The notes under the pieces: model-generated | Databases searched by the model: none | The model's input: the letters and a program-made list of their open reading frames with translations, nothing else | What the model was told of the DNA's origin: nothing | Position numbers and translations under genes: made by a program | Assembly: GCA_964577305.1 (NCBI GenBank) | Contig: CAZNYS010000011.1 | Coordinates: forward strand, 1,507 to 65,506 | Direction of reading: 5' to 3' | DNA from: an uncultured Rikenellaceae bacterium | Lineage (GTDB): Bacteria; Bacteroidota; Bacteroidia; Bacteroidales; VadinHA17 | Length of the DNA: 64,000 nt | In this document: positions 1 to 11,210 of the stretch, piece after piece | How the letters are laid out: each line of letters begins with the position of its first letter | Position numbering within the stretch: position 1 is the first letter of the stretch

Positions 1-1713
1 CGCGATATGCTCAAATACAGACAATCGGCAAATGCATACCGGCAGGCCATGATTATTGATTCAACTTTTTATATCCCGGCCTGGTTTGGATATGGAGAGG
101 TACAATTCCTGATTGGTAATTATTCTGAAGCAAGAAGTAATTTCATGTTATACCTGGACCTTGGAGGAGAACAAACTATCAATGCAGGAAAAACAAAGAA
201 GTATATCAGGGATTGTGATTTTGCGCTGGAGGCTATATTAAATCCTGTTGATTTCAATCCTGTTAACCTGGGTGAATCAATCAATACGAGTGATGATGAA
301 TACTGGCCGGCTATAACTGCTGATGATAATATGCTACTGTTTACACGGCAAAATTCAGTAAGGAGGCGTAACATGATAGGGAAAGAATACCAGGAAGATT
401 TCTATTACAGTTACAGGGTTGATGGAAACTGGGATGTTGCCAGAAATGCCGGGACTCCTCTGAATACCTCATATAATGAAGGTGCTCCAACATTGGAGGC
501 AGCTGGTAATTATATGTATTTCACAGCTTGCAACCGGGAGGACGGTAAAGGTGGTTGTGACATATACTATTCGGCCAGGACAGACAACGGATGGAAAAAA
601 GGCATAAATTTAGGTGGACCTGTTAATACAGCTCACTGGGAATCACAGCCATCACTCTCTTCTGATGGCTCAAGGCTTTTCTTTGTTAGTAACCGGCCTG
701 GAGGATATGGTGGAATGGATATCTGGGTAAGTAACCTGGTAAAGGATGGAAGATGGTCAGAACCTGTTAATCTTGGAGGTATTGTTAATACTCCGGGAGA
801 TGAAATGTCACCCTTTATACACTTTGATGGTAAGACACTGTATTTTTCATCCAATGGAAGGCCGTGTATGGGAGGTTTTGATATTTTTATGTCGCGATTT
901 AACAAAGAAGACAACACATGGTCAGAGCCTGAAAACCTTGGTTATCCAATAAACACCCAGACCGATGAAATTGGCATGGTAATTAATTCCTCGGGAGAAG
1001 TAGCCTATTTTTCATCTAAAATAAATACCCTTAAAGGCAGGGACCTGTATTATTTTAAAATGCCTGAATCTCTGAGACCTGATCCTGTATCTTATCTTAA
1101 AGGGAAAGTAGTAGATAAGTTGACAGGTAAAAAATTAAAAGCCACTTATGAACTCATTAACCTTAGTACAGGCAAGAGGGTGATTCAATCGTTTACAGAT
1201 TCTAAAGGTGATTTCCTGGTATGTTTGCCCACCGGCCATAATTATGGTATTAATGTGAGCAGTAAAGACTACCTTTTCTATTCGGAGAATTTTATGCTGG
1301 AAGGAGAGCACAGTTCAATAAAACCATTTGAAAAGACTATTTCCCTGAGTCCTATCCAGGTTGGTCAGCAGATGTCGCTTCATAATGTATTTTTTGCTTT
1401 TGACTCATGGGAACTGCGTGATGAATCACTACCCGAACTGGAAAAACTGTTTAGTTTGATCGAAAGCAACCATGGTCTGGTAGTTGAAATCGGGGGACAT
1501 ACTGACTCAACAGGCTCTGATGAACACAATCTTGTTCTTTCGGAGAAACGCGCACGTGTAGTTCGGGATTATCTTATCAACCGTGGTATATCACCTGATC
1601 GCTTGCATTATAAAGGTTATGGTGAAAAAGTGCCACTCTATGATAATGCCAGTGAAGAAGGTAAGCGCAAAAACAGACGCACTGATATACGTATACTGAA
1701 AATTTCGGAATAA
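1..1713 (+). CDS. OmpA-family protein with N-terminal TPR and TolB-like beta-propeller repeats (5' partial; frame is open to the window edge)
   Basis: ORF 7..1713, with the frame open upstream to nt 1. Repeated propeller motifs of the WPxxxxDG / LYFxS type. C-terminal OmpA-like domain: FAFDSWEL...GGHTDSTGSDEHNLVLSEKRARVVRDYL...RRTDIRI. Confidence 0.8.
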   Translation, partial: RDMLKYRQSANAYRQAMIIDSTFYIPAWFGYGEVQFLIGNYSEARSNFMLYLDLGGEQTINAGKTKKYIRDCDFALEAILNPVDFNPVNLGESINTSDDEYWPAITADDNMLLFTRQNSVRRRNMIGKEYQEDFYYSYRVDGNWDVARNAGTPLNTSYNEGAPTLEAAGNYMYFTACNREDGKGGCDIYYSARTDNGWKKGINLGGPVNTAHWESQPSLSSDGSRLFFVSNRPGGYGGMDIWVSNLVKDGRWSEPVNLGGIVNTPGDEMSPFIHFDGKTLYFSSNGRPCMGGFDIFMSRFNKEDNTWSEPENLGYPINTQTDEIGMVINSSGEVAYFSSKINTLKGRDLYYFKMPESLRPDPVSYLKGKVVDKLTGKKLKATYELINLSTGKRVIQSFTDSKGDFLVCLPTGHNYGINVSSKDYLFYSENFMLEGEHSSIKPFEKTISLSPIQVGQQMSLHNVFFAFDSWELRDESLPELEKLFSLIESNHGLVVEIGGHTDSTGSDEHNLVLSEKRARVVRDYLINRGISPDRLHYKGYGEKVPLYDNASEEGKRKNRRTDIRILKISE

Positions 1714-1806: not shown

Positions 1807-2631
1807 TCAGATTGCGATTCTAGATGAAACAGGTTCAGACTTATCCTTTTTCATAGCATTGTGTTCCGGAACTGAGAAATACATAGCAGTTCCGTTAACA
1901 CCATTAGGTCGTATCCATAATTCACCGTCCATACTCTCAATAAGTTTCTTTGAAAGTATGAATGAAACAGTAGTAAATGTGTTCTGATGTTTACTTAGAT
2001 ATTTTGTAAGGTTATTACAGGTAAGCAGTTCTCGATTCTTAGTGTAACCATTTCCTGAATCGATAACGTAAAATTCAACCCTGTTTTTTTGCTTCCTGTA
2101 GCCCAACTTAATATAACCTGATTCCGTATTTTCCAATGCATTGAAAAAGAGATTTCTTAAAACCCGATTAATCTTCTCTTTATCAATGAACATTGAATCA
2201 TGTCCGGATCTTTCATCAAGCAGGAGTGTAACCTTCTTCTTATCGAACCTGCTGATAGAATTGTCCAAATCATTCAGAATATCTCTGAGTAAAGTCCTGA
2301 GATCGCATCTGATGATAGTTGAACTTGGAACATCGGAATCGATTAAAGCTGAATCAAGAAAATTATCAAATAATGTAATTAACTGGTCGCATGAATTCAT
2401 AATATGATTATTATACTCGCTCCGCTCTTCCTCTGTGCAGTTATCATTATTACTCAGGAAGGTGAATGCTACTATGGAGTTCATGTAGGTTCGGACTTCA
2501 TGAGATAATCCGGTTAGTATGGAAGGAGTATATAGCATATCAGTGTTATGTACAGGATTTATCATTTCTGACTTTTCATTATGACCATGTTGTGATCCCT
2601 TCTCAATATTTTTCCCAAAAGTCATAAACAT
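1807..2631 (-). CDS. Small soluble histidine-kinase-like protein (HisKA + HATPase_c only, with no sensor or TM domain)
   Basis: H-box LSHEVRTYMNSIV. The C-terminal GHKL region contains RNLFFNALENT and YVIDSGNGY. No hydrophobic segments. Confidence 0.65.
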   Translation of the reverse strand: MFMTFGKNIEKGSQHGHNEKSEMINPVHNTDMLYTPSILTGLSHEVRTYMNSIVAFTFLSNNDNCTEEERSEYNNHIMNSCDQLITLFDNFLDSALIDSDVPSSTIIRCDLRTLLRDILNDLDNSISRFDKKKVTLLLDERSGHDSMFIDKEKINRVLRNLFFNALENTESGYIKLGYRKQKNRVEFYVIDSGNGYTKNRELLTCNNLTKYLSKHQNTFTTVSFILSKKLIESMDGELWIRPNGVNGTAMYFSVPEHNAMKKDKSEPVSSRIAI

Positions 2632-2661: not shown

Positions 2662-3396
2662 TTAGCCAATTTTTCTTAAAAGTTTCCTGGCGTCTTTCTT
2701 ATGCCTGTTTTCAGAGTTTACGACACCCTCAAGCAACTCTTTTGCCTTATCTGCCTGGTCTGTTTGTATATAACAGACACCCAGGTAGAATATGGCATCT
2801 TCAATAAAGAGGTTATCATTATCTTCAACTACCTTGCTGAAGGAACCAATGGCCTCATTATATTGACTAATATGCATGTGGGATGATCCTTTAAGAAATT
2901 CAACCTGCATATCTGCATCAACTATCCTGTTGAACCATCTTATAGCTTCAGTGTAATTGCCTGAATTATAATACTCTGTTGCCCTGGTATAGGCTTCATC
3001 CAGTCCTGCCGATGATGAACGGTATGCAGCCAATGGAGCATATCCAGGTGAGTATTTTGTTGCGATATCCGCAATGTTGTTGTTCCTGATATAGAGACTA
3101 ATGGTCCCGATTAATATCAGGCCCGCAAATACAGCAGCATACTGGATGACCTGTTTTGTGGCAACCTTCCTTTTGGCTACAGTTTTTCTATGCCTGGTTT
3201 CAGCATTCATAAGACTCTGCCTGAAGGCAATAGCATCCTGGTTATCAACATATTTGTTTACCTTTCTGCGCAATTCAAGTTCTTTCTTTAAGCCCGGGTT
3301 ACCCTCAAGCTCTGCTTCGAACCATTCTTTTTCAGCGCTTTGCATATTGCCCTCGAGATATCTTTCGATAAAACGGGTGAATTCAATTTTTTTCAT
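2662..3396 (-). CDS. Anti-sigma-factor-like single-pass membrane protein with an extracytoplasmic TPR domain
   Basis: The N-terminus FIERYLEGNMQSAEKEWFEAELEGNPGLKKELELRRK resembles the Bacteroidota anti-sigma N-terminal helix pattern. One TM segment (VIQYAAVFAGLILIGTISLYI). TPR-like C-terminus (YNSGNYTEAIRWF, AIFYLGVCYIQTDQADKAKELL). Confidence 0.5.
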   Translation of the reverse strand: MKKIEFTRFIERYLEGNMQSAEKEWFEAELEGNPGLKKELELRRKVNKYVDNQDAIAFRQSLMNAETRHRKTVAKRKVATKQVIQYAAVFAGLILIGTISLYIRNNNIADIATKYSPGYAPLAAYRSSSAGLDEAYTRATEYYNSGNYTEAIRWFNRIVDADMQVEFLKGSSHMHISQYNEAIGSFSKVVEDNDNLFIEDAIFYLGVCYIQTDQADKAKELLEGVVNSENRHKKDARKLLRKIG

Positions 3397-3658
3397 AACG
3401 TGTAGTATTTCATTTTCATTTCATTTCGAATTTATTATTCTTCTGTTTATGTTAACTACCACATTATCAAAGTAATGTAGATAGATAAAGTACATTCATC
3501 ATCATTCAGTCATTGCCTGATAGCAATGCATTCAAAAACAGTGGTATATAGTATTTTTACATACTTTAGCCACCCCGGCCCTAATTTATTTAGCCGGTAC
3601 CGTAATACGGTTCTAATATTTTACAGATCGCTGTATTTCTTTTCCTTTGATCTGGCTA

Positions 3659-3793
3659 TTAGATCTCAGGTTCTGTGATAGGGGGAACTGTCATTTGTTT
3701 TTCACCATCACCGCCGCGTACGAGCAGCATTTCTTCGTCTGAAAGTAAAAAGTCGTTGAAATTTTCAAATTTTTCCTGATTTAAAGTTCTCAT
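3659..3793 (-). CDS. Double-glycine (GG) leader peptide precursor, 44 aa (not in the ORF track because it is under 60 aa)
   Basis: Manual reverse-complement translation gives MRTLNQEKFENFNDFLLSDEEMLLVRGG-DGEKQMTVPPITEPEI, then TAA. The leader fits the Bacteroidota GG-leader pattern (LN.EKF..F...LS.EEM....GG). A C39-peptidase ABC exporter and an HlyD gene lie 4 kb away. Confidence 0.7.
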   Translation of the reverse strand: MRTLNQEKFENFNDFLLSDEEMLLVRGGDGEKQMTVPPITEPEI

Positions 3794-4021
3794 CTTAATA
3801 ATTTTTTTGGTTACACTTCTAAATAATCGGGTTTATTATTACGTTACATATATACATGTCACTTTAATGCTTTTTGTGACACGAAAATTTCAACTTTTTT
3901 TTATGACAGTTTATAAAACCCAGATATACAAGAGTGTACATTATATATTTTTTTTGGCTTTTAGCTTTCTTATACTGATATTTGGTGCTTGTGTGGTAAA
4001 TAATTGTAAACATAATAATAA

Positions 4022-7021
4022 ATGCGGATTATTTCCAGATATATATTTATACGGATTATCATTATTCTATGTTTCATTCAGGATTTAGAAGCCCGTCAGT
4101 TTAACAATGTAAACGAGAAAGATTCAGTAATCGTAAACAAGCTCAACAGCTTTAAGACTGCTTTGCAGGAAAGCAGTCCCGATGCAAGCTTATATTATAA
4201 CTGGATTCTGAACTATCTTGGAACCAATGATATTAGCGACAGTATACTTATATCAGATTGTTATTACTATACCGGAACATATAAATACATCGGGAACTCT
4301 TACAATGATGCTATAGAATTATTACAGGAGGCAATCAGGTACAGGATTGCCGTTGACAGCATAGATGATATTTATGCCAGGGCTAGAACAAATCTGGCAC
4401 TTTCGTACATGTATACGGGTAAACCGGAGGAGGCTCGTGTAAACCTCGAAATGGCTCTTAAAACCAGGGAAGGGCTATTTGGAACTGAATCACCAATACT
4501 CCTCAGGACACTGTTGAATCTGTCAGCGATATATATTGACATGAATATGCATGAAAGAGCATTACCAATTTCGCTCAGGGGTGTCCATCTGGCAGAAAAT
4601 CACCCGGAAGATATCGATAAGGGGACCCTTGTGAACTTTTATTATAATTCCGGTGTGTCATATATGAATATTCTGGATTATAACAGAGCAAAAAGAAATT
4701 TTGAAATTGCCTATGACCTTGCGCAGGAAAGTTTGAGTTTAGATCCCGAAAAGCTTTTACTTTTATATAATTCAATCGCCGCATGTAATTATGAGCTTGG
4801 CAATTCCGATTTATCTGACCAATATTTTGGAAAAGCATTGGAGCTGATTGATTCAACTGGTTTTTCAGGAAGATTGGTAAATGCGGTATATGAGAATTAT
4901 GCTTTTTTCCTGGCCGGTATAGGGATGTATGACAAAGCAGAGCATTATTTATTATCATCAGTTGAAGAAGCTGAGAAAGAATACGGGAAAGAGAGCAGGG
5001 ATCATATAATACAGCTTCTGAATTACTCTTACTTCCTGATAAATAATATGGCAAATTACAGCGAAGCGGAAGAAATATTAAAAAAAGTACTGCCATATGT
5101 GAATGAAAATAAGCAAGATAAAAGGGTCAGGAGTGAGGCTTTTCTATATTTTTCCAGGCTGATGTATTATACAGGAAGGAATTCAGAAGCTTTGAGATAT
5201 ATTAATAACATAATTAATGATTCTTCAATAGTGGCTTCAAATATCAGGATTGCTTCTTTTATACATAAAAGTAAAATACTATATACGATATACAGGTCAG
5301 GGAATGATAGTCAGAATCTCAGGGAAGCTTTATCAGCAGTAGAACAAGCTATAGCTATTATAGAGGCTACGAGGCTGAGGATAAACGAGGATGAGAGTCG
5401 TAGCAGGGTGTCTGGCAGATATTTTGACGCTTACGATATAGCAATAGCCATATTGAATGAATTGTACAGCCTTACAAAAGATAAGGAATACATCGAACAG
5501 GCTTTTTCTATTTCAGAAAAATCAAAGGCTGCAGGTTTACTTGTAGCAACCAGGAATAACAGGGCAATGAATTTCCACCTGCCCAATGGTCTTGCCAGCC
5601 TTGAAAGAGAACTGCAGGCTGATATCAGAGATTATAACGAGGTGATATATAATGAATCTGCAAAACAAAAACCGGATAATGATCTTATTGATCGCTATCG
5701 CCATCTAAGCGTCAGGGCAGGTAGTAAGTATGATTCACTTGTACGGATCTTTGAACAGGAGTATCCCCGGTATTATAACCTTAAGTTTAACACGGCGGTG
5801 AGTTCTGCTGATGATATACGAAGAAGGATAGGCAGAAAAGGTAACTTTGTTGAATATTACTTATCAGATAGTCTCTTATATATTTTCCTGATAAACCGTG
5901 AAAGATTTGAGATTGAATCAGTGCCGGCAGGTGATGGTTTGCTTGAGATGATCCTTGATTTCAGAAATATTCTCACCAATCCGTCAATAGTCAATGAGTC
6001 CTGGACACAATACCTGGAATATGTTGAGCTCGCCTTAGAATTATATAAAAGACTGTTACTCCCGGTGAGGGATTACTTTATCTCAGAAAGGCTCATTATT
6101 TCTGCAGATGATATACTTTCATATATTCCTTTTGAAACACTGATAAGCGAAATCCCTGAATATAATGAAATAAATTACCGTGAGTTAGCCTATATGATGA
6201 GAGAATATGAGATAATCTATGAATACTCCGGTACCATATTATCAGAAACATTATCATCACACCGTAGCATAAATAATAAAGTATTGAGCTTTGCGCCGGA
6301 ATATACAGGGAGTATCGATATTGAAGAACTTATGATGAGCAGGCAGTTTGATCGTGACAATCTGACCAATATCCCCGGTGCCAGGGAAGAAGCAATATAT
6401 ATCAATAAATTGCTTGGTGGGAAACTATATATCGATGACCAGGCAACTGAAAGCATATTCAAATCAAATGTAATTGAAGGCGATATAATACACCTGGCCA
6501 TGCACACACTGTTGAACGATAATGAACCCATGTATTCGAAAATGATCTTTAACATGGAAGCCGACACAGTTGAAGATGGTATGCTTAATACCTTTGAGGT
6601 TTACAATATACCCGTTAAATCAAAGATGATGTTTCTAAGTGCCTGTAATACCGGAAGTGGTTACCTGCAATCTGGTGAGGGAGTAATGAGTTTGGCCAGG
6701 GGATTCTTCTATTCAGGAAGCCCGTGTGTAATAATGTCTTTATGGGAAGTGGATGACCGTTCGGGAAACGATATTGTAAAAGATTTCTATTCTAATCTAA
6801 AAATGGGCTTCTCAAAAAGTAAGTCACTTAAAAAAGCAAGAACTAAGTACCTTACAGATGCTGATCAGATGAGGTCGCATCCTTACTTCTGGAGTACCCT
6901 GGTGATAATGGGTAATGATGACTCTGTATATTTCCCTTTTAAAAGGTACCTCCTCATAGCAGTCCTTATCATCATCCTTTATTTTCTTGCAAGGTATTAC
7001 TACAGGTTAAAATCGGTGTAA
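4022..7021 (+). CDS. TPR-repeat CHAT-domain (caspase-like) protease with an N-terminal signal/anchor and a C-terminal TM helix
   Basis: Hydrophobic N-terminus MRIISRYIFIRIIIILCFIQDLEA. About 600 aa of TPR-like repeats. CHAT His/Cys dyad context: IIHLAMHTLL and MMFLSACNTGSG. C-terminal TM segment YLLIAVLIIILYFLARYYY. Confidence 0.8.
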   Translation: MRIISRYIFIRIIIILCFIQDLEARQFNNVNEKDSVIVNKLNSFKTALQESSPDASLYYNWILNYLGTNDISDSILISDCYYYTGTYKYIGNSYNDAIELLQEAIRYRIAVDSIDDIYARARTNLALSYMYTGKPEEARVNLEMALKTREGLFGTESPILLRTLLNLSAIYIDMNMHERALPISLRGVHLAENHPEDIDKGTLVNFYYNSGVSYMNILDYNRAKRNFEIAYDLAQESLSLDPEKLLLLYNSIAACNYELGNSDLSDQYFGKALELIDSTGFSGRLVNAVYENYAFFLAGIGMYDKAEHYLLSSVEEAEKEYGKESRDHIIQLLNYSYFLINNMANYSEAEEILKKVLPYVNENKQDKRVRSEAFLYFSRLMYYTGRNSEALRYINNIINDSSIVASNIRIASFIHKSKILYTIYRSGNDSQNLREALSAVEQAIAIIEATRLRINEDESRSRVSGRYFDAYDIAIAILNELYSLTKDKEYIEQAFSISEKSKAAGLLVATRNNRAMNFHLPNGLASLERELQADIRDYNEVIYNESAKQKPDNDLIDRYRHLSVRAGSKYDSLVRIFEQEYPRYYNLKFNTAVSSADDIRRRIGRKGNFVEYYLSDSLLYIFLINRERFEIESVPAGDGLLEMILDFRNILTNPSIVNESWTQYLEYVELALELYKRLLLPVRDYFISERLIISADDILSYIPFETLISEIPEYNEINYRELAYMMREYEIIYEYSGTILSETLSSHRSINNKVLSFAPEYTGSIDIEELMMSRQFDRDNLTNIPGAREEAIYINKLLGGKLYIDDQATESIFKSNVIEGDIIHLAMHTLLNDNEPMYSKMIFNMEADTVEDGMLNTFEVYNIPVKSKMMFLSACNTGSGYLQSGEGVMSLARGFFYSGSPCVIMSLWEVDDRSGNDIVKDFYSNLKMGFSKSKSLKKARTKYLTDADQMRSHPYFWSTLVIMGNDDSVYFPFKRYLLIAVLIIILYFLARYYYRLKSV

Positions 7022-7566
7022 TCACTGAATTCAGGGTCAGCTTTCACTATTTTAATCAGTGCTTCTTTACATAGATATTTTTTTCGGCGAGCGTAATCTG
7101 CTGATTTATAATTCATTTCACGGGCAATATGGCTATAATCATGACCTTTGATAACCATATTAAGCACTTCCTGGCATTCCGGTTTCAGTTTCAGGAAAGA
7201 CCGCTGTACTATTTGTTCCAACGGAGTGTCAAGCAAATTCGAAGGATCAAAATCATCAACCAGTTCTTTATCCATCTCAACATTTTTCCTCTTCTTCCTG
7301 AGATGCTCGTGCCATAAATTCTTGGAAACACCAAAGACATATCCCTTAACATCGGTATTTTCTTCAAGGTTGTTAAGTTGTATCTTCTTGAAAAGTACCA
7401 TCAGGGCATCCTGGAATATATCATATGCATCATCTTCCGTACCTGTATTCTTCAGTACATATGATTTTATGGTATCGAAAAATGAGTCATAGAGGTAGTT
7501 AACTGATTTATCGTCCCCCTTTCGTATTCCCTCTATTAATTTTGTATCTGAGTGTTTATTTAACAC
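7000..7566 (-). CDS. ECF-type sigma-70 family RNA polymerase sigma factor
   Basis: 188 aa. Region 2 (DAYDIFQDALMVLFKK ... GYVFGVSKNLWHEHLRKKRK) and region 4 HTH (CQEVLNMVIKGHDYSHIAREMNYKSADYARRKKYLC). Apparent GTG start. The 3' end overlaps the CHAT gene by 22 nt. Confidence 0.8.
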   Translation of the reverse strand: MLNKHSDTKLIEGIRKGDDKSVNYLYDSFFDTIKSYVLKNTGTEDDAYDIFQDALMVLFKKIQLNNLEENTDVKGYVFGVSKNLWHEHLRKKRKNVEMDKELVDDFDPSNLLDTPLEQIVQRSFLKLKPECQEVLNMVIKGHDYSHIAREMNYKSADYARRKKYLCKEALIKIVKADPEFSDYTDFNL

Positions 7567-7703
7567 TTCATAATAGTATTTGAGGCAAATATAGTATTTC
7601 CAAATAATTAACTCAATGATTTAAGACTAATAAGCAGTTGTAACAGTATGTTTGAATAGAATCAAATAATAGATATATTTACAGACTTTAACTATTGTTC
7701 GGT

Positions 7704-9890
7704 ATGTCATTTCCTTTCGAAAGGCAAGCAGATGCTATGGATTGTGGTCCTACCTGTCTTCAGATGGTTGCCCGTTTCTATGGTAAGAAGTTCAGCCTCC
7801 CTGATTTGAGGGGCAAGAGTTATATTACCAGGGAGGGAGTTTCTTTCCTGGGTATATCCGAAGCAGCAGAATCAGTTGGATTCAGGACTATTGGTGTTCG
7901 TATACCTTTTGCCAAGCTTGCTGAAGAGACTCCATTACCCTGTATTGTGCACTGGAGGCAAAAACATTTTGTTGTAGTACATAAGATTAAGAAAGACAGC
8001 GTGCATGTTGCCGATCCTGCAAGGGGACTGGTGAAATATTCCAGGGAAGAATTTGAGAAAAACTGGGCTATGACAACGATCGATGAGGAAAAGGTGGGTC
8101 TGGTACTGATACTTCAACCCACTCCTGAATTCTATGAGCAGGAAGAGGCAAAAGAGGGGAAATCAGGATTCAGCTTTCTTCTACGTTATATTAAGATGTA
8201 CAGGAAGTATTTCTTCCAGATCTTTCTTGGATTATTCATAGGTAGTCTTATACAGCTGATCTTTCCGTTTCTGACACAGTCGGTTATCGATATCGGTATA
8301 AATACCAATGACCTTGGATTTATTTACCTTATACTTTTTGCACAACTTGCCCTGGTTTTAGGGAGAATGACCGTTGAATTTGTTCGTGGATGGCTGTTAC
8401 TGCATATCAGTACCAGGGTTAACGTGGCCATTGTTTCAGGCTTTCTTTACAAACTGATGGCTTTGCCAGTATCATATTTCGATACCAAGTTAAGTGGTGA
8501 CCTGTTACAGAGAATTGAAGATAACCAGCGGATAGAGTCATTTCTCAGTAACACCTCATTAAGTGTGCTGTTCTCGTTTGTTAACCTCCTGGTTTTCGGT
8601 ATTGTCCTGGCTATATATAATTCAACCATACTGCTTATCTTCCTTGCCGGCACTACTTTTTACATTGCCTGGGTATCCGTTTTTATGCGGTCGCGTGCTC
8701 AGCTTGATCATAAGAGGTTTAAACAGCTGTCTGACAATAATGCCAAACTGATTGATATAATCACCGGTATGCAGGAGATTAAGCTTACTCAAAGTGAAAC
8801 AAGTAAAAGATGGGATTGGGAGAATGTCCAGGCATCACTGTTCAAAACAAGAGTAAAGGCAATGAGTCTTTCACAATACCAGCTTGCAGGTGGAAGATTG
8901 ATAAATGAAGCATCCAATGTGCTTATTACTATTATCGCGGCTGCTGCAGTATTATCAGGGAGCATGACACTTGGTATGATGCTGGCCGTACAGTTTATTA
9001 TCGGCCAGTTAAATATCCCGGTGAACCAGATGGTTGTGTTTTTCAGGACAGCACAGGATGCAAGAATGAGCCTTGACAGGCTTTCTGAAATACAATCCAG
9101 TCAGCCTGAAGAGTTGGAGGATGAAATGAAAGTAAAAAACCTGCCGGCAAACAAGAATATCTATATAAATAACCTATCATTCCAGTATGAAGGGCCACGT
9201 TCACCATTTGTCCTGAAAGATATCGATATAGTAATACCTGAGAAGAAGATCACTGCCGTGGTTGGTACCAGCGGCAGCGGAAAGACAACAATGCTAAAAC
9301 TTATGCTTGGATTCTATAACCCTGTTGAAGGAGATATACTGGTTGGCGACACAAACCTCAGGAATCTCAGTCTCAAAGTATGGAGACAAAAGATAGGTGT
9401 AGTGATGCAGGACGGTTATATTTTTCCTGATACCATAGCTAATAATATTGCTCCCGGCATTGATGTAATTGACAGTGATAAATTATTAAAATCAATCTCA
9501 ATTGCTAATATGAACGATTTTGTTGATACTTTGCCATTGGGCATAAATACAAGGATAGGACATAACGGTCATGGATTGAGCCAGGGACAGAAACAACGAA
9601 TATTGATAGCCAGGGCAGTATATAAAAATCCTGATTACCTGTTTTTTGATGAGGCCACAAACTCACTTGATGCCGCCAATGAAAAGAAGATAGTTACAAA
9701 TCTTAATGAATTTTTCTCAGGCAAGACAGTGTTGATAATTGCTCACAGGCTAAGTACGGTGCGTAATTCTGATAATATTGTGGTTATCGATAAAGGCCGG
9801 ATGATAGAAAGTGGCACTCATCCTGAACTGATAAGCAGGAAAGGCATATATTACAACCTGGTACGTGACCAGTTGGAGCTTGGTAACTGA
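7704..9890 (+). CDS. C39 peptidase domain-containing ABC exporter (bacteriocin/GG-peptide processing and export type)
   Basis: C39 catalytic Cys in DAMDCGPTCLQM and His in IVHWRQKHFVVVH. Six-TM exporter core. Walker A GTSGSGKTT, signature LSQGQKQR, Walker B LFFDEATNSLD. ATG at 7704 preferred over the TTG at 7695 used by the track. Confidence 0.9.
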   Translation: MSFPFERQADAMDCGPTCLQMVARFYGKKFSLPDLRGKSYITREGVSFLGISEAAESVGFRTIGVRIPFAKLAEETPLPCIVHWRQKHFVVVHKIKKDSVHVADPARGLVKYSREEFEKNWAMTTIDEEKVGLVLILQPTPEFYEQEEAKEGKSGFSFLLRYIKMYRKYFFQIFLGLFIGSLIQLIFPFLTQSVIDIGINTNDLGFIYLILFAQLALVLGRMTVEFVRGWLLLHISTRVNVAIVSGFLYKLMALPVSYFDTKLSGDLLQRIEDNQRIESFLSNTSLSVLFSFVNLLVFGIVLAIYNSTILLIFLAGTTFYIAWVSVFMRSRAQLDHKRFKQLSDNNAKLIDIITGMQEIKLTQSETSKRWDWENVQASLFKTRVKAMSLSQYQLAGGRLINEASNVLITIIAAAAVLSGSMTLGMMLAVQFIIGQLNIPVNQMVVFFRTAQDARMSLDRLSEIQSSQPEELEDEMKVKNLPANKNIYINNLSFQYEGPRSPFVLKDIDIVIPEKKITAVVGTSGSGKTTMLKLMLGFYNPVEGDILVGDTNLRNLSLKVWRQKIGVVMQDGYIFPDTIANNIAPGIDVIDSDKLLKSISIANMNDFVDTLPLGINTRIGHNGHGLSQGQKQRILIARAVYKNPDYLFFDEATNSLDAANEKKIVTNLNEFFSGKTVLIIAHRLSTVRNSDNIVVIDKGRMIESGTHPELISRKGIYYNLVRDQLELGN

Positions 9891-9896
9891 TTAATT

Positions 9897-11210
9897 ATGA
9901 CGAAACAGTCACATGAAATAAGATATTCCCGACCCGTGGAGGATATAATGAACACCCCTCCCAGGTCTATGGTTCGATGGGGCACTGCAATAGCGACAAT
10001 AGTAATAATATTGCTTCTGTTCCTTTCCTGGATTATAAAATACCCTTATATAATAAGGGCTGAAGCCGTAATAACAACAGAAAAGCCGCCGGCAAATATA
10101 GTTGCAAGGGTATCAGGTAATATAGAACATCTCTTTGTAAGCGACGGAGAAAAGATTTCATCAGGATCAATCCTTGGAGTAATGGAAACTACCGCTACTT
10201 ACGAGAGTATACAGTGGTTGAGTTCATTGCTCGATACGGTGAAAACAGAAGACATGTCATCTGCAAATGAAAAAGTGATCCGGAAATTACCGAATAACCC
10301 TGTTCTGGGTGAGATACAGGATCAGTATTCAACCTTCAGGAAAAACTACTATGACTATATAAACCATATAGAAATTGACTATTACGGGAAAAAAATAGAG
10401 GCTGTTAATGAGGAAATAAAGAGTATCGAAGACTATATCAGGCAGCTCAAAAGCAAAGAGGCCCTGACAGCCTCTAACCTTGAGGTAGAGAAAAAGAAAT
10501 ACCTGAGAGATTCACTACTGAACGAGCAGAACATTTTACCTGATGCTGAACTGGAAAATTCAAAGCAGAAATTTTATTCCTTAAAGATCGAACTGGTTCA
10601 GGTTGTACTGGAAGCTTCATCAAGACGTATTGACCTTGCATCTAAAAAGCAGGAGTTGCAGGATTTGACTGCTGCCCGCGAAGAAGAAAGACAAAGGTAT
10701 ATTTCCGCCGTTGACGATGAGCTTATGAAACTTAAAGCAAGACTCGAATGGTGGATACAGGATTACCTGCTCGTTTCACCCATTGACGGAAATGTGACTT
10801 TTACGAGGTACTGGTCAGAAAATCAGTCTGTAAGGGAAGGAGAAACAGTAATGACGGTTGTGCCCCAGGGCGAAAGTGAAATATTTGCCCGTATTATGAT
10901 CCCGATGGCAGGCTCCGGGACAGTGAAAGAAGGGCAGAATGTTAACATACAGCTGGAAGGATATCCTTACCTTGAATATGGAATGGTTCAGGGTATAATA
11001 GAATCACGTTCACTGGTCCCACAAGAAGATCTATATGTCCTCGATGTTAGTTTACCCGACGGCTTATCAACATTTTATGGAAAGCAACTCGATTTCAGCC
11101 AGAATATGTCAGGAAGGGCTGAAATTATAACCGAGGATATGAGGTTGATCGAGAGACTGATATATCCTTTTAAATACCTTGTCGAAAAGAACAGGAGAGC
11201 GGGCAATTAA
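9897..11210 (+). CDS. HlyD-family membrane fusion / secretion adaptor protein
   Basis: Single N-terminal TM (WGTAIATIVIILLLFLSWII), a long coiled-coil middle and a beta-rich C-terminus. It starts 6 nt after the ABC exporter gene. Confidence 0.8.
   Translation: MTKQSHEIRYSRPVEDIMNTPPRSMVRWGTAIATIVIILLLFLSWIIKYPYIIRAEAVITTEKPPANIVARVSGNIEHLFVSDGEKISSGSILGVMETTATYESIQWLSSLLDTVKTEDMSSANEKVIRKLPNNPVLGEIQDQYSTFRKNYYDYINHIEIDYYGKKIEAVNEEIKSIEDYIRQLKSKEALTASNLEVEKKKYLRDSLLNEQNILPDAELENSKQKFYSLKIELVQVVLEASSRRIDLASKKQELQDLTAAREEERQRYISAVDDELMKLKARLEWWIQDYLLVSPIDGNVTFTRYWSENQSVREGETVMTVVPQGESEIFARIMIPMAGSGTVKEGQNVNIQLEGYPYLEYGMVQGIIESRSLVPQEDLYVLDVSLPDGLSTFYGKQLDFSQNMSGRAEIITEDMRLIERLIYPFKYLVEKNRRAGN

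Follow-up and report, generated by a model that had tools for sequence, protein, structure and literature searches.

On the minus strand of a 64,000-nucleotide stretch of contig CAZNYS010000011.1 from an uncultured Rikenellaceae bacterium (this whole stretch is called the window below), an ATG...TAA open reading frame (ORF) of 44 codons plus stop lies at 3659..3793 and reads as the precursor of a small peptide with a double-glycine (GG) leader. The locus raises two questions: is so small a frame a gene, and what would its product be for? To the first, our results give a plain answer. The ORF is a real, conserved and previously unannotated gene, and we regard this as practically certain. To the second, the answer is graded. 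We consider it about evenly balanced that the peptide is the exported regulatory ligand of a seven-gene module, which consists of the peptide, an anti-sigma-like tetratricopeptide repeat (TPR) protein, a histidine kinase, a TPR-CHAT protease, a sigma factor of the extracytoplasmic function (ECF) type, a C39 ATP-binding cassette (ABC) exporter and an HlyD adaptor.

The peptide gene

The first-pass annotation had proposed a hidden 44-codon minus-strand gene with a GG leader at this position, and the proposal was borne out by the exact translation, by conservation and by the C39 recognition positions. Direct reading of the minus strand gave MRTLNQEKFENFNDFLLSDEEMLLVRGGDGEKQMTVPPITEPEI, which divides at the GG junction into MRTLNQEKFENFNDFLLSDEEMLLVRGG and DGEKQMTVPPITEPEI. 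The leader comprises codons 1-28 (3710..3793, minus strand) and ends in VRGG. The predicted core DGEKQMTVPPITEPEI comprises codons 29-44 (3662..3709, minus strand) and is followed by the stop codon (3659..3661, minus strand). The descriptions of this core as 16 residues long and free of Cys were correct for the window peptide.

A regular-expression search in all six frames returned this ORF as the only credible GG-leader small ORF in the 64-kb window. Chance was judged by the published C39 positions only, that is, hydrophobic residues at -12, -7 and -4 and an acidic residue at -8 or -9, followed by G-[GAS]; one ORF in the window fitted this pattern, and shuffled windows held 0.23 each. Because 0.23 are expected per shuffled window, the GG motif alone is mildly improbable, which is suggestive and not compelling. 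It is conservation, rather than the motif, that carries the case for a gene.

Close relatives of the window peptide formed nine protein clusters at 73-100% identity in a search of 5.8 billion proteins, and the length differences among them were all in frame and located in a variable G/D linker. Between the window and its relative L001, nucleotide differences were distributed over the three codon positions as 1/1/12, and the differing codons comprised nine synonymous and four non-synonymous changes. An A-rich stretch directly 5' of the peptide ATG was also conserved across loci.

Distant relatives were reached with the downstream gene as the anchor, which gave 83 loci. A strict regular expression recognized a small ORF in the same slot in 64 of the 83, and a hidden Markov model (HMM) built from those added 16. 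Two loci ended at a contig edge and were excluded, so that among the 81 testable loci, whose contigs have upstream DNA, 80 carried an in-frame ORF in the peptide slot; L044 was the sole testable locus truly without it. The 80 loci represent about 80 species-level metagenome-assembled genomes (MAGs) labelled Bacteroidales, Bacteroidia, 'Rikenellaceae' or 'Marinilabiliaceae'. The look-ups that began from the peptide instead of the anchor gene (three look-ups, four loci) all landed in the same module. It was thus confirmed from both directions that a small ORF is conserved beside TPR-CHAT genes, as had been expected. An exhaustive profile search of 1.84 billion representatives placed the peptide family in 39 clusters at 50% identity, and a word-indexed profile search gave 577 clusters at 90% identity. 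The source databases call them 'hypothetical protein' wherever they are named, and none of the Pfam and NCBIfam models captures the family.

Leader and core

The anatomy of the family was counted on 82 peptides, 80 of them unique. The leader is 28-29 residues long in 76 of the 82, and the cleavage junction follows the pattern [VI][RKH]G[GS], with GG in 81 and GS in one; in the window it is VRGG followed by D. Leader columns conserved in at least 90% of the peptides are L17, E21, M22, V25, G27 and G28, corresponding to positions -12, -8, -7, -4, -2 and -1. In the LahT150-leader co-crystal, the hydrophobic leader residues -4, -7 and -12 dock in a groove of the C39 domain and the GG is placed at the active site (PMC6363468). 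Since the conserved columns coincide with these published recognition positions (-12, -7, -4 and GG), the leader is of the C39 substrate type. Judging from this agreement, the peptide is very probably a substrate of the co-encoded peptidase-containing ABC transporter (PCAT), and its cleavage and export are predicted.

The cores are 13-21 residues long (median 16). Pro makes up 23% of their residues and PP is present in 79 of the 82 peptides; Cys occurs in two cores only. The C-terminal residue is Ile in 74, Leu in six and Val in two, and 66 of the cores open with Asp or Glu. In the clade of the window the core has an acidic tail, ...VPP[IV]TEPEI, and most other clades finish in ...PP[IV][KIR]I. 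The net side-chain charge of the cores ranges from -6 to +1, and 54 of the 82 are at -1 or 0. The core had been called atypically acidic, which holds for the window copy (net charge -4) and does not hold for the family. One locus, L066, carries tandem peptide genes at 7480-7620 and 7671-7796, whose leaders and cores are similar and not identical (...DPVVKPNIPPVIL and ...DPVVKIVIPPVIL).

The proposed identity with the TIGR04149 or TIGR01847 type was not upheld. Against TIGR04149 (GG_sam_targ_CFB) the window peptide scored 12.7 bits (E = 0.092), below the cutoff of 25, and 16 of 45 family members touched this model through their leader (E <= 1, best E = 3.4e-5). The window peptide did not match TIGR01847 (bacteriocin_sig), which was reached by one of the 45 members (E = 0.47). 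By score, the peptide lies outside both families, though the style of its leader resembles the Bacteroidota type.

The module carries no radical-SAM/SPASM or other peptide-modifying enzyme, in agreement with the first-pass annotation. The nearest radical-SAM gene, and the only one in the neighbourhood, encodes a QueE-type queuosine enzyme of about 209 aa. A reading as a peptide made on the ribosome and modified after translation (RiPP) was therefore rejected: there is no maturase, and the radical-SAM gene that recurs past the PorE-like gene is QueE. A reading as a defence system was considered because CHAT proteases occur in CRISPR (clustered regularly interspaced short palindromic repeats) and CBASS (cyclic oligonucleotide-based antiphage signalling system) contexts. 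It was also rejected, as PADLOC gave only a generic ABC ATPase similarity.

The conserved gene module

The decisive context for the function of the peptide is supplied by genes that the first-pass annotation did not mention, namely those for the exporter, the HlyD adaptor, the ECF sigma factor, the anti-sigma-like TPR protein and the kinase. Five partner genes were tested by tblastn, and they were present wherever the contig was long enough, at identities down to 32-45%. The module as a whole persists where its partner proteins are only 35-40% identical. It is found at one place in the chromosome, with a DUF349 gene on one side and a PorE-like OmpA gene on the other, and this fixed position indicates vertical inheritance. 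No response regulator gene was found in the module.

The gene directly downstream of the peptide gene (2662..3396, minus strand) encodes a single-pass membrane protein of 244 aa according to transmembrane (TM) prediction and an AlphaFold 2 model. Its cytoplasmic N-terminus has three helices (aa 1-50). A TM segment follows at aa 82-104, then a periplasmic linker that is disordered (aa 104-133), and last a 3-TPR domain (aa 134-244) modelled with a predicted local distance difference test score of about 90. The best structural matches of the 3-TPR domain were YbgF and two sets of well-known peptide-binding TPRs, SycD/PcrH/IpgC and RPAP3/Sec72/CHIP, the latter with C-terminal peptides bound. A Cys/His zinc motif is absent. 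Within the variable linker, Arg126 is conserved in 82 of 82 sequences, Ser127 in 93% and Tyr119 in 95%, and this stretch is a candidate protease site or docking motif. We consider the protein a probable anti-sigma factor. The kinase gene begins 30 nt past it (1807..2631, minus strand) and encodes a soluble protein of 274 aa with HisKA and HATPase_c domains, without TM segment or sensor domain. Its G1 box is conserved. The phospho-acceptor His44 is kept in 63 of 75 loci and is Arg in 12, where the motif SHE[VM]RT has become SREMRT in a subclade with an intact ATP-binding G1 box. It suggests that the kinase may not always use canonical autophosphorylation.

Divergent to the peptide gene lies the gene of a TPR-CHAT caspase-like protease of 999 aa (4022..7021, plus strand), with the CHAT domain PF12770 over aa 670-965 (E = 1e-47) and TPR_12 (E = 8e-21). 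H824, H828 and C875 of the CHAT domain are invariant in 69 of 69 loci. An N-terminal hydrophobic segment was found in 57 and a C-terminal TM segment in 65 of these loci, and because of this signal-like segment and the C-terminal anchor the protein is predicted to be periplasmic. In sequence and profile searches of the PDB its TPR part alone was matched, and the TPR region gave weak profile matches to NprR and Rap.

The sigma factor gene (7000..7566, minus strand) encodes a divergent ECF-type protein of 188 aa (TIGR02985, E = 7e-13), whose homologues carry Pfam Sigma70_r2 or Sigma70_r4_2 matches; it is present in every locus with enough flank. The sigma and CHAT genes are convergent and their 3' ends overlap by 22 nt (7000..7021), with a similar arrangement in L001, L004, L008 and L009, which may cause transcriptional interference or antisense effects. 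The PCAT gene (7695..9890, plus strand) encodes Peptidase_C39 (E = 5e-37), ABC_membrane and ABC_tran domains, scoring 401 bits against TIGR01193, below its cutoff of 523.85. The C39 residues Q11, C17, H91 and D107 are invariant in 65 of 65 loci. As the homologues are 728 aa long, ATG 7704 (MSFPFERQ...) is a likelier start than the listed TTG 7695. The HlyD-family periplasmic adaptor (9897..11210, plus strand) has one N-terminal TM segment and scored 96.6 bits against TIGR01843, below cutoff. Wherever the flank was long enough, the PCAT and HlyD genes were present; in the window they are about 4 kb from the peptide gene.

Some further features of the neighbourhood were observed. The gene for the PorE/CHU_0125-like PD40-OmpA outer-membrane protein (window 7..1713, plus strand) is a constant flank of the module, and so is the QueE-like gene, which in syntenic loci lies just past the left end of the window. 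These flanking genes look like fixed synteny with no evident functional link. In distant clades an ORF of about 59 aa is conserved between the DUF349 and HlyD genes (about 1281-1460 in L090-L093, 100-282 in L009); it had no family match and was not seen in the clade of the window. Two locus copies in the same MAG, ASO36 (L018 and L019), share about 94% identity over a stretch of 16.7 kb that takes in the PorE-like flank; their peptide cores differ at 5 of 17 positions, and they cease to align directly after the peptide gene. Because the identity of about 94% extends into the flanks, they are most likely co-binned relatives and not paralogues.

Regulatory DNA

A bipartite motif, TGTCAC-N14-TGACA, was found at 3857..3881 on the minus strand, about 63 nt upstream of the peptide ATG. 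Across the family it takes the form TTTTnnTGTCACAAAA-N10-CGACATG, i.e., TGTCAC-N14-YGACA; it is directional, its spacer is fixed and its distance to the ATG is 45-83 nt. Of 93 loci, 76 have a single copy, in each case shortly upstream of the peptide gene and on its strand. We infer that it is a promoter read by the module's ECF sigma factor. L044 (MAG fen_974), the locus that has lost the peptide ORF, retains the motif as TGTCAC-N14-CGACA (7872-7896, upstream of 8001) about 100 nt before its anti-sigma-like gene, which indicates that the promoter serves a peptide/anti-sigma-like operon. A kinase match was not found in L044, which may be a natural 'listener-only' or decaying variant.

Between the peptide stop and the next gene the window has a gap of 262 nt (192-663 nt across loci) with two adjacent hairpins at 3574..3623 on the minus strand, for which the minimum free energy in the window is -14.8 kcal/mol. 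In 79 loci the best 50-nt hairpin within 150 nt downstream of the peptide had a mean of -14.7, compared with -10.4 for shuffled sequence, and hairpins below -12 were found in 75% of loci and 16% of the shuffled controls (Wilcoxon p = 1.5e-14). These hairpins may be a terminator or an attenuator. An Rfam scan of the first 12 kb returned no known RNA family.

The other transcription units of the module carry boxes of another kind. One, ACTATATTTG (7584..7601, minus strand), lies upstream of the ECF sigma gene, and among 72 intergenic regions TATATTT was present in 70 and ATATTTG in 62. The other, the near-consensus TATATTTAC (7663..7682, plus strand), lies upstream of the exporter operon. We call both housekeeping-type after what we take to be the Bacteroidota housekeeping -7 element, TAnnTTTG. 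With such promoters in front of the sigma gene and the exporter operon, the cell would make its sensing and export machinery constitutively. A scan for sigma-70 consensus promoters and terminators around the ORF showed no enrichment of promoters, and the consensus used in that scan does not cover Bacteroidota.

Rates and co-variation

Among close relatives, no parts change faster than the peptide core and the CHAT TPR region, whose rates are matched in all four divergence bins (0.35, 0.54, 0.56 and 0.75 for the core; 0.32, 0.53, 0.58 and 0.74 for the TPR region). In the closest bin three other parts were much slower, at 0.16 for the anti-sigma TPR domain, 0.19 for the CHAT protease domain and 0.10 for the C39 domain. 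After control for the transporter body, partial r values of 0.27-0.37 linked the core distances to the anti-sigma-like protein, to the sigma factor and to the CHAT TPR region, compared with about 0.1 for the C39 domain. The leader distances, on the other hand, followed the C39 domain and not the sensory proteins.

Proposed function and mechanism

Because the gene travels with a sigma factor, an anti-sigma-like protein and a periplasmic protease, a dedicated peptide signal is suggested rather than a toxin, and we lean towards a signal or ligand role on this ground. The preference of the first-pass annotation for an exported signal over a bacteriocin fits all of the context evidence; it is a reading of that context and not an observation.

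The way in which such a ligand could act may be set out in four steps. The first is well supported: the C39 domain would recognize the 28-residue leader and cut after VRGG, and the exporter with its HlyD adaptor would move the unmodified 16-residue core from the cytoplasm. In the second step, for which the conserved context argues, the mature Pro-rich peptide would be the dedicated extracytoplasmic ligand of the accompanying regulatory genes. In the third step, by analogy with DegS/RseA and DdvA/DdvS, the peptide may bind a periplasmic TPR surface. The likeliest site would be the fast-evolving TPR region of the CHAT protein and the alternative is the 3-TPR domain of the anti-sigma-like protein. 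Binding would activate the CHAT protease, which may then clip the disordered linker of the anti-sigma-like protein at the candidate site Arg126-Ser127, and intramembrane proteolysis would next release the ECF sigma factor. In the fourth step the free sigma factor would transcribe from the TGTCAC-N14-CGACA promoter of the peptide gene, and read-through past the hairpin would express the anti-sigma-like and kinase genes. The predicted outcome is positive feedback on the signal together with negative feedback through the anti-sigma factor, and downstream outputs might include targets phosphorylated by the soluble kinase. The peptide may be a cell-to-cell signal, if it leaves the cell, or a private signal, if it stays in the periplasm. 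We put forward the full proteolytic cascade, which leans on analogy, as a tentative model.

Several observations weigh against the ligand reading or parts of the model. The module contains no gene for an outer-membrane channel. No second copy of the promoter motif was found in the 64-kb window or in about 1.2 Mb of loci, so that no regulon output is visible. The N14 spacer is shorter than the 16-17 nt of classical ECF promoters, and the motif is partly palindromic and could therefore be an operator for another regulator. The sigma factor fell just short of the general ECF model TIGR02937 (40.7 bits, cutoff 42.9). For the anti-sigma-like protein, two anti-sigma NCBIfam models gave weak, sub-threshold matches in 9 of 21 members each (best E = 0.004), and profile searches with its N-terminal residues 1-80 against the PDB and Pfam returned nothing significant, only chance-level matches. 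The kinase, which has lost its phospho-His in 12 of 75 loci, has a role that the model does not explain. All the genomes are uncultured MAGs.

The evolutionary signals have to be read with similar care. The matched rates of the core and the CHAT TPR region could simply mean that both are under weak constraint. The co-variation is modest, phylogeny confounds it, and for the anti-sigma-like protein the agreement with the core is as good in the cytoplasmic part as in the TPR domain. Charge complementarity between the core and the periplasmic TPR domains was tested and is absent: acidic cores pair with more acidic domains. In the clade of the window the periplasmic domain of the anti-sigma-like protein has a charge of -4.7 (+0.2 elsewhere) and the CHAT TPR region one of -21 (-10 elsewhere), and the CHAT protease domains are likewise more acidic in the clade with acidic peptides. 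The acidity is a clade-wide compositional trait, and the cores of the family are mostly at -1 or 0. Some members of the window's clade are of saline origin, e.g., from the Salar de Ascotan, and the acidity is possibly a salt adaptation of the proteome.

Alternative explanations

The main rival to a ligand is a small unmodified toxin. The peptide would then be a bacteriocin similar to class II microcins or bacteroidetocins, exported by the PCAT and HlyD proteins. Its production would be regulated by the sigma factor, the anti-sigma-like protein, the kinase and the CHAT protein, and immunity would be conferred by the single-pass 244-aa protein or by the CHAT protein. A GG leader, a PCAT and a membrane fusion protein are indeed the canonical export set of bacteriocins and microcins (PMC12219008), and the Bacteroidota RiPP leader model TIGR04149 is a distant relation of the leader seen here. 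No part of the module evolves faster than the core, which differs at 5 of 17 positions between two genomes about 94% identical, as could come about in an arms race; a membrane protein gene also stands directly downstream, the usual place for an immunity gene. However, the cores have just 13-21 residues, are neutral to strongly anionic, consist of Pro to 23% and are essentially free of Cys, and the leader of 28-29 aa is longer than those of class II microcins. The PP motif and the C-terminal Ile are under purifying selection across the clade, and in about 80 species the locus occurs once, at an unchanging chromosomal site, and seems vertically inherited and not a variable accessory island. The 244-aa protein, with its cytoplasmic helical and periplasmic TPR domains, is unlike the small multi-TM immunity proteins (PMC12219008). 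No typical immunity gene was found, though by its sequence the 244-aa protein may act in immunity, and apart from it no small TM ORF was seen in the module. A toxin would also have no need of a periplasmic protease whose active site is invariant at every locus. Taken together, these points leave the toxin a minor share of the probability.

In another explanation, the peptide is not a diffusible signal but a substrate or cis-acting partner of the CHAT protein, and the sigma/anti-sigma pair senses the product rather than cell density. The CHAT protein, a clan-CD enzyme, could trim the peptide or ligate its C-terminus to an envelope component. Some clan-CD enzymes act as transpeptidases, such as the legumain-type ligases, glycosylphosphatidylinositol (GPI) transamidase and PorU of the type IX secretion system (T9SS), which speaks for this version. 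In a second version, the peptide would serve in the periplasm as an inhibitor or a bait, and the rate of its export would report on the condition of the envelope or of the exporter. The divergent pairing of the peptide and CHAT genes in every locus, the invariant CHAT dyad and the rate matching of the core with the CHAT TPR region suit either version. The Asp or Glu at the start of 66 of the 82 cores and the conserved C-terminal residue could be processing determinants, and release from the cell is not assured by a module lacking an outer-membrane channel gene. On the other side, no acceptor molecule or further processing site is identifiable, an HlyD-type adaptor normally implies export across both membranes, and a self-specific promoter fits autoinduction at least equally. 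Computationally this explanation is indistinguishable from the ligand reading, as the first two steps are common to both. We hold it to be rather unlikely.

That the ORF is functionless though translated, or is really a non-coding RNA or regulatory leader of the anti-sigma-like/kinase operon with its frame kept by chance, is highly improbable: the region upstream is as conserved as the ORF among close relatives, structured RNA follows it, the GG motif is expected 0.23 times per window by chance and L044 does without the ORF, but the 1/1/12 codon-position pattern with indels in frame only, the retention of frame, GG junction and core motif in 80 of 81 loci though the nucleotides are unalignable between clades, the conserved A-rich stretch before the ATG, the lack of an Rfam match and the constant presence of a cognate exporter with an intact C39 site all contradict it.

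Novelty and significance

Peptide cell-cell signalling is textbook knowledge in Gram-positive bacteria and is rare and poorly documented in diderm bacteria. No description of it in Bacteroidota turned up in the literature that we searched, and a full-text search with the terms CHAT, ECF, C39, double-glycine and Bacteroidetes found no description of the module. The components are all of known kinds, while their combination and the peptide family appear undescribed, and the chance that the signalling architecture is itself new is substantial. It is possible, though doubtful at present, that Bacteroidota have here their first described circuit of a dedicated peptide pheromone, with a new architecture: PCAT-exported, unmodified and Pro-rich 13-21-mers would be sensed in the periplasm by the TPR region of the CHAT protease, which would make the site-1 cut at Arg126-Ser127 in a separate anti-sigma factor, and the released ECF factor would auto-induce the peptide.

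The analysis defines a precursor family of 577 clusters at 90% identity, all 'hypothetical' or unannotated, and a strictly conserved seven-gene module whose components have individually testable roles. It also shows that annotation blind to small ORFs conceals the key gene of a conserved regulatory system. If the proposed mechanism is right, it would be a new way for a secreted peptide to reach transcription, with a caspase-like protease, an anti-sigma factor and an ECF sigma factor as the links. Such signalling would be quorum-sensing-like and would work by regulated proteolysis in place of a two-component or RRNPP receptor. It would also name a definite class of ligand for periplasmic TPR-CHAT sensors, of which the only characterized case (DdvA) has an unknown trigger. 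The compact set of peptide, sensor and promoter, for which nature offers many specificity variants, could then be rebuilt in a heterologous host.

Comparison with known systems

The GG pheromones of Gram-positive bacteria, such as ComC/ComAB-ComDE and BlpC/BlpAB-BlpHR of Streptococcus pneumoniae (PMC7595303, PMC7018657), are alike in the GG-leader precursor and its cleavage and export by a C39-ABC protein, here predicted. The likeness extends to an unmodified mature peptide of <25 aa, adjacent regulatory genes, a dedicated peptide promoter, which suggests autoinduction, and rapid diversification of the core. The module differs from the ComC and BlpC systems in its diderm Bacteroidales host, its HlyD adaptor and its lack of a response regulator. 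Its kinase cannot be a ComD-like receptor, because it is soluble, has no sensor domain and has lost its phospho-His in some lineages; the predicted transducer here is instead the ECF sigma/anti-sigma-like pair with the periplasmic CHAT protease.

Class II microcins and bacteroidetocins (PMC12219008) share with this system a GG-leader peptide, a Gram-negative host and a nearby PCAT and membrane fusion protein. Their leaders have about 15-18 aa and their cores tens of residues, often with Cys pairs (PMC12219008), whereas the system described here has a longer leader, a much shorter, Pro-rich and anionic or neutral core, a fixed locus and accompanying sigma, anti-sigma-like and CHAT genes. With the radical-SAM RiPP precursors of TIGR04149 the style of leader is common (MK.L...L..EEM..I.GG), but the core is unrelated and no maturase is present here.

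The RRNPP receptors NprR and Rap receive short secreted peptides through TPR domains, but they work in the cytoplasm, as transcription factors or phosphatases, and sense peptides that have been re-imported. In Nostoc, the CHAT protease HetF belongs to the same developmental pathway as the PCAT HetC, and the two genes are not known to form one module with an ECF sigma factor. HetC acts in a peptide-patterned developmental pathway (PMC10986499). We regard the resemblances to RRNPP and HetC/HetF as generic.

DegS-RseA-sigmaE of E. coli (PMC8103513) offers an analogy only: the C-terminus of a peptide activates a periplasmic protease through an accessory domain, and the protease makes the site-1 cut in a single-pass anti-sigma factor, by which an ECF sigma factor is set free. 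Recognition of a C-terminus in this way would agree with the Ile conserved at the end of the cores. DegS differs in being a serine protease and in having a PDZ sensor; what it binds are C-termini of misfolded outer-membrane proteins and not a dedicated secreted peptide. There is no homology among the components.

DdvA/DdvS (PMC11506125) is alike in having an ECF sigma factor under a single-pass protein with a small helical cytoplasmic domain, a TM segment and a long flexible periplasmic linker. For DdvA, a periplasmic TPR-CHAT part with a His-Cys dyad was proposed as the site-1 protease acting on the linker, and the activating signal is unknown (PMC11506125). Sequence and profile searches of the PDB gave no sequence-level match between the CHAT protein of the window and DdvA. 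In DdvA, whose distribution is Myxococcota, the TPR-CHAT part and the anti-sigma factor are fused in one protein with a zinc-binding N-terminal domain (CHCC), and the genes under its control are a CBASS/CRISPR defence island. In the window, by contrast, the CHAT protein is separate and membrane-anchored, the anti-sigma-like protein has its own 3-TPR domain and no zinc motif, defence genes are absent (PADLOC), and the module includes a dedicated exported peptide together with its exporter.

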